Positions 31,718 to 31,898 of a stretch of DNA of 36,379 nt are shown here, piece by piece. The notes below the pieces were generated by a model, which was given only the letters and a program-made list of their open reading frames with translations, did not search any database and was not told the DNA's origin. This DNA is from a virus. Lineage: Duplodnaviria; Heunggongvirae; Uroviricota; Caudoviricetes. Positions within the stretch are counted from its first letter, which is position 1, and every line of letters starts with the position of its first letter. The stretch lies in the IMG/VR virus record IMGVR_UViG_2531839666_000016; one strand, 5' to 3'. The position numbers and the translations under genes are program-made.

Positions 31718-31761
31718 GGTACCAGCTTGTACCCTTGCTTCCGGCTGGTACCGTCCTTTTT
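31718..31761 (+). terminator. tL1-like intrinsic terminator in early-left operon
   Basis: Perfect 9-bp stem GGTACCAGC / GCTGGTACC, 17-nt loop, followed by TTTTT. Confidence 0.5.
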
Positions 31762-31898
31762 ACAAAACAGAGAAGAGCATCACCGGACGACGGGCTCATA
31801 ACCCAATCCATCCGGGCGGCGGCCACCACAGGTGTTCTTCTCTGTTTTGTGGAGAAACTAATAGGCCTTGCAGGGTCGATATGATGAGGAGCAGCAAA

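Follow-up and report, generated by a model that had tools for sequence, protein, structure and literature searches.

The locus just upstream of yfdP in IMG/VR virus record IMGVR_UViG_2531839666_000016 raises the question of what an intrinsic terminator directly followed by a long perfect inverted repeat does at the head of a prophage operon. We analysed the whole record (36,379 nucleotides from a member of the Caudoviricetes; hereafter, the window), in which an earlier note, made from the sequence alone, had described a compound RNA-structure element at positions 31718–31850, the repeat enclosing a 59-nt GC-rich loop, and had suggested an antitermination or attenuation device, conceptually like put of phage HK022, controlling read-through into the yfdPQR-xis-int genes. 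The analysis revealed two RNA modules that stand next to each other at the start of the early-left operon in a lambdoid prophage of the e14/SfV/ST64B type, which has no N gene. The first (31698–31761) is, as judged by sequence, the seed-plus-terminator 3′ end of a prophage small RNA (sRNA) of the STnc100/PasD/DicF type; the second (31762–31850) is a conserved three-way-junction RNA, consisting of helix P1 with arms P2 and P3 and read towards the downstream genes. An antitermination switch is a less likely reading of the element than a module for RNA processing and tRNA mimicry. The features of the two modules and of the segment behind them are as follows.

31698–31714, + strand: conserved single strand UUGCUGUGUGUAGUCUU, directly 5′ of the terminator hairpin; seed-like sRNA 3′ region.
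31715–31761, + strand: intrinsic-terminator hairpin with U5; 12-bp stem (31715–31726 with 31744–31755), 17-nt loop, U5 at 31757–31761.
31762–31781, + strand: P1 5′ arm, the left repeat arm extended to 20 nt; covaries.
31783–31815, + strand: P2 arm, with base helix CCGGA/UCCGG, two small internal loops and apex GGG-CUCAUAA-CCC (31792–31804).
31816–31829, + strand: P3, a short variable hairpin (GCGG-CGGCCA-CCAC).
31831–31850, + strand: P1 3′ arm, the right repeat arm extended; covaries.
31851–31858, + strand: conserved GGAGAAAC, directly 3′ of P1; its GGAGA can pair with the terminator U-tract.
31864–31877, + strand: P4, a small hairpin looped by UGCA(G), 3′ of the element and 5′ of the ribosome-binding site (RBS).

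The analysis confirmed that a conserved RNA-structure element of compound make-up precedes the yfdPQR-xis-int genes on the + strand, and that the 15-bp perfect inverted repeat lies where it had been reported. The repeat extends from its perfect 15-nt arms to 18 nt at 94% complementarity, and as RNA it forms a helix of 20 bp (31762–31781 with 31831–31850), which reaches ~25 bp in the minimum-free-energy fold, where GGAGA (31851–31855) pairs with the U-tract. The window contained a single 15-mer perfect inverted repeat whose loop is ≤100 nt, against 0.003 expected and none in 50 shuffles, and the folding z-scores were −5.7 for the 89-nt element and −5.2 for a 206-nt region, with none of 200 shuffles folding as well. 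The GC-rich stretch of 59 nt between the arms does contain the sub-hairpins that had been anticipated, but it is not a plain loop, as it is made up of the two conserved hairpins P2 and P3. The P2 core occurs once in the window.

Klebsiella phage DNA just after annotated tRNA genes matched the core of this supposed loop, and this match gave entry to a family of >200 loci gathered by pattern scans and BLAST. Lack of conservation of the paired arms in homologous phages had been named beforehand as a ground for refutation; the arms proved to be conserved and to covary in homologues, and the folding and covariation check that had been recommended revealed covariation in P1, P2 and P3 alike. Among 67 distinct window-type homologues, 96.6% of cells were paired and 11 pairs changed on both sides; the covariation score was reached by none of 500 shuffles, and slid controls were 44–50% paired. 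P1 had six pairs that change on both sides (for example, A-U in 34 versus C-G in 27 sequences), the P2 base helix changed between G-C, A-U and U-A (one pair being A-U in 30 and G-C in 30 sequences), and P3 pair 61–95 changed between G-C and A-U. With three context classes, described below, brought together in one covariance model, 10 of 18 pairs changed on both sides. P3 of the relatives ranged from 4 bp to about 40 nt, and their P4 stems differed (CGACC/GGUCG, GGCGG/CCGCC, CCCC/GGGG) around a recurring (U)UGCAG loop; this loop is also found in many P3 hairpins, and UCCUAAC in other P3 loops. RNAalifold found P1 independently; its alternative interior hairpins were rejected for P2, having no covariation and being broken in one of the context classes, the short-stem class.

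When P1 was read as + strand RNA, 96.9% of its cells were paired and 117 were G·U; the − strand reading gave 88.9% and 10, respectively. This excess of G·U on the + strand indicates that the element is an RNA, transcribed towards the downstream genes. With its perfect terminal inverted repeats of 15 bp, ~59 bp apart, the element could also be taken for one that works at the DNA level, for example a palindrome bound by a protein, a site of recombination or a miniature transposable element. However, the G·U pairs make the helix strand-specific, and the arm sequences differ among the context classes while the pairing stays. Moreover, a single copy is present in the window, the context and the orientation relative to transcription are always the same, and the flanks (CCTTTTT / GGAGAAA) show no target-site duplication, so that the marks of a miniature inverted-repeat transposable element are lacking. 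We regard a DNA-level element as scarcely credible.

The family covariance model gave the window 78.7 bits and also recovered members that had not been used in its training, namely those of Pantoea (L010 and L168), e14 and an Acidobacteriaceae metagenome-assembled genome (MAG). Through compensatory changes, the three helices are preserved in no fewer than 15 genera and in two genomic contexts, and the 20-nt core was exact in >120 IMG/VR contigs among the matches listed. A 261-nt query comprising the hairpin, the element and the start of yfdP matched 2850 of 5426 complete E. coli genomes, or about half, as well as phages of Shigella, Salmonella, Klebsiella, Citrobacter and Pantoea. Across Enterobacterales, members of the family open the early-left operon of lambdoid prophages that lack N, coming after an sRNA terminator. 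Four viral contigs (L193, L195, L246 and L251), which have no U-tract in front of P1, keep P1, GGAGAACUAAC and P4 around a different structured interior of ~65 nt; the retention of P1, GGAGAA and P4 around an unrelated interior suggests that P1 behaves as a separable cassette. Genome-wide pattern matches outside Enterobacterales were mostly chance occurrences inside genes, only L151 and L046 fitting the model. The L151 copy (2558–2617, − strand), in the Acidobacteriaceae MAG and thus far outside Enterobacterales, holds the exact 20-nt core in a two-helix hairpin (GCGCGGGCUG...CAGCCCGCGC) and scored 41 bits with the family model.

Rfam 15 yielded no match at gathering score in the whole window, and nothing relevant was found up to E 10 for the element or a short-stem copy. 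Taken over all Rfam scans (window, element, SfV, e14, short-stem copy, HK022 and the dicF locus), sub-threshold DicF and STnc100 matches fell on the terminator side and none on the inverted repeat. The Rfam scan advised in the earlier note returned a DicF resemblance below threshold beside the repeat in the window, and no family at gathering score. A literature search on ymfH, yfdP, lambdoid tRNA-like RNA, initiator-tRNA mimicry and the core sequence found nothing relevant on the junction RNA. This RNA family, common in E. coli-type prophages, appears to be undescribed so far.

The P2 apex (CGGGCUCAUAACCC, 31791–31804, 14 nt) is identical to nt 28–41 of E. coli initiator tRNA, the sequence of which was checked against the annotated tRNA-Met gene (four copies per E. 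coli genome). Beyond the anticodon arm, the element shows no resemblance to tRNA-fMet. ARAGORN found no tRNA in the window and skipped the short-stem copies while calling the adjoining tRNAs, and there was no Rfam tRNA match. GGG/CCC and CAU were kept in most of the members sampled, the sampling being unbiased in that it was anchored outside the core. The short-stem copies constitute a second class, with the same P2, a P3 hairpin, a 6-bp P1 (GGCCUG/CAGGCC), U at −1 and an (A/G)CCA 3′ end. They end in GGCC(A/G)CCA, the acceptor-like stem and RCCA being present in all 15 short-stem sequences, and at 13 of 14 loci they follow the last gene of a phage tRNA array at the usual distance of ~7 nt, in the region between Q and the lysis genes. 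The window element has no acceptor-like stem with RCCA, but instead the 20-bp P1 followed by GGAGAA. A third class (L012, L027 and L154) resembles the short-stem class but has no tRNA neighbours. Behind the short-stem copy in Klebsiella phages (L004/L005 2581–2665), there is a conserved stretch of ~85 nt that ends in a strong terminator (CCCGCCUUGAGCGGG plus a U-run); it has a weak Rfam resemblance to isrK and anti-hemB and may be another small RNA. A hammerhead reading of CUGAUGA in the short-stem copies was rejected, as the motif is not conserved in the other classes and there is no GAAA core.

The other module begins the compound structure. The hairpin with T5 that had been described ahead of the repeat was found in place, with its 12-bp stem and 17-nt loop, far beyond chance. 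In its core, CGGTACCAGC (31717–31726) pairs with GCTGGTACCG (31744–31753), and G31716·U31754 and G31715-C31755 complete the 12 bp. It has the make-up of an intrinsic terminator, a G+C-rich hairpin immediately followed by a U-tract, in an atypical form; the 17-nt loop and the presence of only five U suggest that termination is probably partial, or leaky. The terminator scan did not call this hairpin because the loop limit of the scan is 8 nt. UUGCUGUGUGUAGUCUU in front of it is near-invariant across the phages of E. coli, Citrobacter, Salmonella and Klebsiella, and the hairpin sequence behind varies freely. The U-run ended ≤4 nt before P1 in 76 of 78 distinct family flanks, and an abutting stable hairpin was found in 70 of the 78, with 31 different stem sequences; the hairpin is thus kept though its sequence changes. 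No U-tract was found ahead of P1 in the L097 and L141 flanks.

In SfV and e14, the same hairpin constitutes the 3′ end of a match to STnc100 (RF02076) that scored 39.5 and 29.2 bits, respectively, below the gathering threshold of 47. STnc100 had no match in the window, where its body is absent. With the DicF family (RF00039), positions 31702–31756 of the window scored only 19.4 bits (E 0.094) and e14 28.5 bits, short of the threshold of 48, and true dicF scored 76.7 bits. STnc100 and PasD have been reported as structurally homologous prophage-borne sRNAs (bioRxiv 10.64898/2026.05.13.724894). SfV and K-12 e14 contain ~158 nt more just upstream of the hairpin, in a region annotated as ymfH in e14, and the comparison of the window with SfV (31655–31700 against L001 2520–2700) revealed gaps of 12 nt and ~146 nt, which together correspond to the missing sRNA body of ~158 nt. 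The missing stretch in SfV and e14 also holds the spacer and −10 of a likely sRNA promoter (AAGACA-17-TATTTT). In the window, the −10 of SfV and its spacing are disrupted and no convincing sRNA promoter is left, from which we infer that the absent 5′ stretch included the sRNA's own promoter. The body-less junction as one piece was found only in strain RM7190 among the sampled complete E. coli genomes. The e14 ymfH open reading frame (ORF; L002 2593–2904) lies wholly over the STnc100-like RNA, the terminator and the tRNA-like element, and is probably not a gene.

The gene order of the window, an e14-like lambdoid prophage, is cro (−), cI (30060–30752, +), ymfJ (+), ymfI (−), the element, yfdP, yfdQ, yfdR, xisE and intE. 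The relatives SfV, ST64B, phiNP, LLS, mEp460 and an Stx2a phage have a layout of cI, 0.5–1 kb of mostly non-coding DNA, the element and a yfdP-like gene. The following features lie on either side of the element.

30807–30821 and 30830–30844, + strand: two OL-type operators, TTGCATATCTCGCAA and TTGCATATTTCGCAA, respectively, just 3′ of the cI terminator.
30830–30858, + strand: putative early-left promoter, −35 TTGCAT (30830–30835) and −10 TATCTT (30853–30858).
31886–32261, + strand: RBS GAGGAG (31886–31891) and yfdP (ATG at 31899), the first gene of the yfdPQR-xis-int block.

The operator repeats (family D2) share a motif between the OL pair and the cro/cI operator TTGCTTATCACGCAA (30025–30039); the 15-nt motif TTGC-N7-GCAA, present twice at 30807–30844 and also at 30025–30039, marks OL and OR of this immunity type. 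Since the operator copies lie just after the cI terminator, an early-left promoter firing towards the element was placed near 30830–30858, by operator position alone; the consensus promoter scan scored none at this site. This promoter is the likely source of the transcript reaching the element, which would run antisense to ymfI. Separately, ymfJ (+, 31032–31340) and ymfI (−, 31278–31619) converge, overlapping by 63 nt (31278–31340), and an in-frame GTG ORF (31671–32261) that crosses the element into yfdP is probably spurious.

This setting bears on the proposal of put-like, RNA-mediated processive antitermination or attenuation, by which an N-less phage would read through into yfdPQR-xis-int. 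As had been observed before, no N-like gene was found between cI and yfdP, ymfJ and ymfI having no Pfam match, and the relatives share the layout. The element also lies downstream of the inferred early-left promoter and elsewhere downstream of Q, the usual places for antitermination signals. The proposal nevertheless found no support. The stem-loop starts 0–4 nt after the U-tract: P1 is transcribed after the termination decision at the adjacent terminator has been taken and cannot influence that terminator. The terminator scan revealed no further + strand terminator-like site between 31850 and 32400. HK022 putL and putR are likewise cis RNA structures near the early-operon starts of a lambdoid phage lacking N-mediated antitermination; however, put consists of two stem-loops upstream of terminators with a consensus of their own, whereas the element is a three-way junction after a terminator and unrelated in sequence. 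Neither the location between promoter and terminators nor the pair of stem-loops with the putL/putR consensus was found in the element, and the family model detected nothing in the HK022 immunity region. In addition, the short-stem tRNA-like copies with RCCA ends sit in the arrays of phages that already have Q, a setting that does not speak of antitermination. Antitermination by this element, also at terminators farther downstream, is, in our view, quite improbable. A nut-like (boxA/boxB) reading of the P1 3′ arm (UGCUCUU) and P4 was rejected as well, as the boxA-like stretch is only 7 nt long, reads UGUUCUU in the window, and is buried in the 20-bp helix.

Our best model, which we advance tentatively and with somewhat less than even confidence, combines the sRNA 3′ end with the junction RNA, RNase III cutting P1 and freeing the tRNA-like core. 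Transcripts that read through the terminator would fold P1, extendable over the U-tract to ~25 bp, and RNase III would, by analogy, cut this helix of 20–25 bp. Cleavage would separate the sRNA from the yfdPQR-xis-int mRNA, which would acquire a new 5′ end, and would free the core (P1 stub, P2 and P3) as a small RNA. An RNase III site takes about two turns (≥20 bp) of mostly regular RNA duplex, and P1 provides 20 bp, or 25 bp with the U-tract. In the late tRNA arrays, the 6-bp acceptor-like stem, the U at −1 and RCCA suggest that tRNA-processing enzymes would release the core instead. In this model, the core would be the payload, served by two release devices, of which the long P1 is one.

The analogy is provided by dicF-dicB of prophage Qin, which is likewise an early-left-type lambdoid prophage operon with a short Hfq-type sRNA 3′ module and shares the UUGGCGGUAnCAG stem; there, too, the U-tract is followed within ~12 nt by a long-stemmed structured RNA (15 bp at dicF versus 20 bp in the element), just upstream of the next gene. 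At dicBF, the 72-nt DicF arises when RNase III cuts the long transcript (PMC9438474), and RNA-seq data include an RNase III-dependent site for dicF-dicB (PMC5371410 Table S1). The E. coli dicF-dicB intergenic region (L263 1565–1705) was found to contain an STnc100-like fold (38.8 bits) closed by the 15-bp stem UUUUGUGAUGCGGUG/CACCGCAUCACAAAA, inside which the 3′ end of the published 72-nt DicF would fall. The module behind dicF differs from the element in being this STnc100-like fold and not a tRNA-like junction, and the family model had no match there; the STnc100-like fold is located downstream of the terminator at dicF, but upstream of it in the relatives of the window. STnc100-like folds recur in lambdoid operons, both before and after sRNA terminators. 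As for STnc100/PasD, the terminator hairpin analysed here is shared as the 3′ end of the STnc100-like RNA in SfV and e14, whereas the window has neither the body nor an Rfam match, the relatives are below threshold, and the inverted repeat is outside that family. T7 R sites, the lambda N leader and sib resemble P1 in being long imperfect helices between functional units of an early phage transcript; those are simple hairpins, in contrast to P1, which caps a conserved tRNA-like junction and for which cleavage is predicted.

The core has CAU and three G-C pairs as its invariant features. On initiator or methionine tRNA, these are read by the 30S P site together with initiation factor 3 (IF3), and by methionyl-tRNA synthetase (MetRS); toxins of the VapC/MvpT type cleave initiator tRNA. 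The core could therefore be a dedicated mimic of the initiator anticodon arm, which would become a free small RNA by RNase III excision in the early-left operon or by tRNA-type processing in the late arrays and engage a reader of CAU and the three G-C pairs, although we consider this specific role unlikely. If it is true, the mimic might act as a decoy for VapC/MvpT-type toxins, or bind either MetRS or the 30S P site with IF3. Antisense targets of the CAU loop in the window numbered 12 sites (≤3 mismatches) against 8.6 expected, which is no signal.

The same arm could serve in cis, in a leader that controls the translation or stability of the first early-left gene through binding of 30S/IF3 or MetRS, or as a protective 5′ structure. 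The element is always 35–70 nt upstream of the first RBS and is followed by the conserved GGAGAAAC and P4, and its loop CUCAU is complementary to AUGAG, a sequence that in the E. coli type overlaps the Shine-Dalgarno region and in several further lineages the start codon. However, only about half of the examined lineages have the AUGAG match, which there coincides with a Met-Ser start, and the downstream gene varies (L011, L050 and e14). In tRNA arrays, the same core is followed not by a gene start but by ~85 nt and a terminator. We hold a cis-acting leader to be plausible, though of low probability, and the same applies to the suggestion that its binding would use the initiator-like arm and the adjacent GGAG, as the thrS operator mimics an anticodon arm.

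Several observations weigh against RNase III excision of an initiator-tRNA-like core. The putative RNase III cut of P1 is argued from the helix length and the dicF analogy, and this position of e14 is absent from the published RNase III list (PMC5371410 Table S1); K-12 e14 has a repressed, degenerate copy (loop UUAAUAA). P1 contains one or two conserved mismatches in many relatives (28 of 67 at pair 14–109), which could tune or block RNase III cleavage. GGAGAA is also conserved in L097 and L141, where the U-tract before P1 is absent, and pairing with the U-tract is thus not its sole role. The window P3 has one broken pair (C·A). As to the loop, a large subgroup has CUCAUUC, with U where tRNAs have a purine, a few members have UUCAUAA and one locus has CCCAUAA, and four loci carry GUG-CCCUAA-CAC with no CAU; initiator-tRNA mimicry is common but not absolute, and it is imperfect.

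The degenerate e14 copy and the mismatch in the window P3, as well as the failure of ARAGORN to call a tRNA here, would also be expected of a non-functional relic, that is, a decayed tRNA gene or a fragment derived from a tRNA that travels with the module boundary. Such a relic is very improbable, given that compensatory changes keep three helices across this range of genera and in both contexts, that the core is exact in so many of the listed contigs, and that nothing outside the anticodon arm is like tRNA-fMet.

Other RNAs are known to copy tRNA. The thrS operator is an anticodon-arm mimic, the C4 RNA of phage P1 and the CI RNA of phage P4 are matured by RNase P, and bacterial YrlA is also a tRNA mimic. 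As in these, part of a tRNA is copied inside a non-tRNA transcript, and the short-stem class of the element, located amid tRNA genes, carries RCCA on an acceptor-like stem. The element differs from them in copying the initiator anticodon stem-loop and not the acceptor/T domain, in having no Rfam match to any of them, and, in the window, in having the acceptor-like stem replaced by a 20-bp duplex.

On these sequence-based grounds, the junction RNA would represent a further kind of tRNA mimic and of phage RNase III processing hairpin. It is widespread, with matches in about half of the complete E. coli genomes; Rfam nevertheless has no family for it, and we found no paper that mentions it. The widely annotated K-12 e14 ORF ymfH most probably covers non-coding RNAs. 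The arrangement would also tie the classical RNase III processing of DicF to a general layout of lambdoid early operons, in which an sRNA terminator is followed by a long-stemmed module. Finally, it would allow the mimicry of initiator tRNA by phages to be tested, just as defences that target tRNA, and phage countermeasures, are coming to light.
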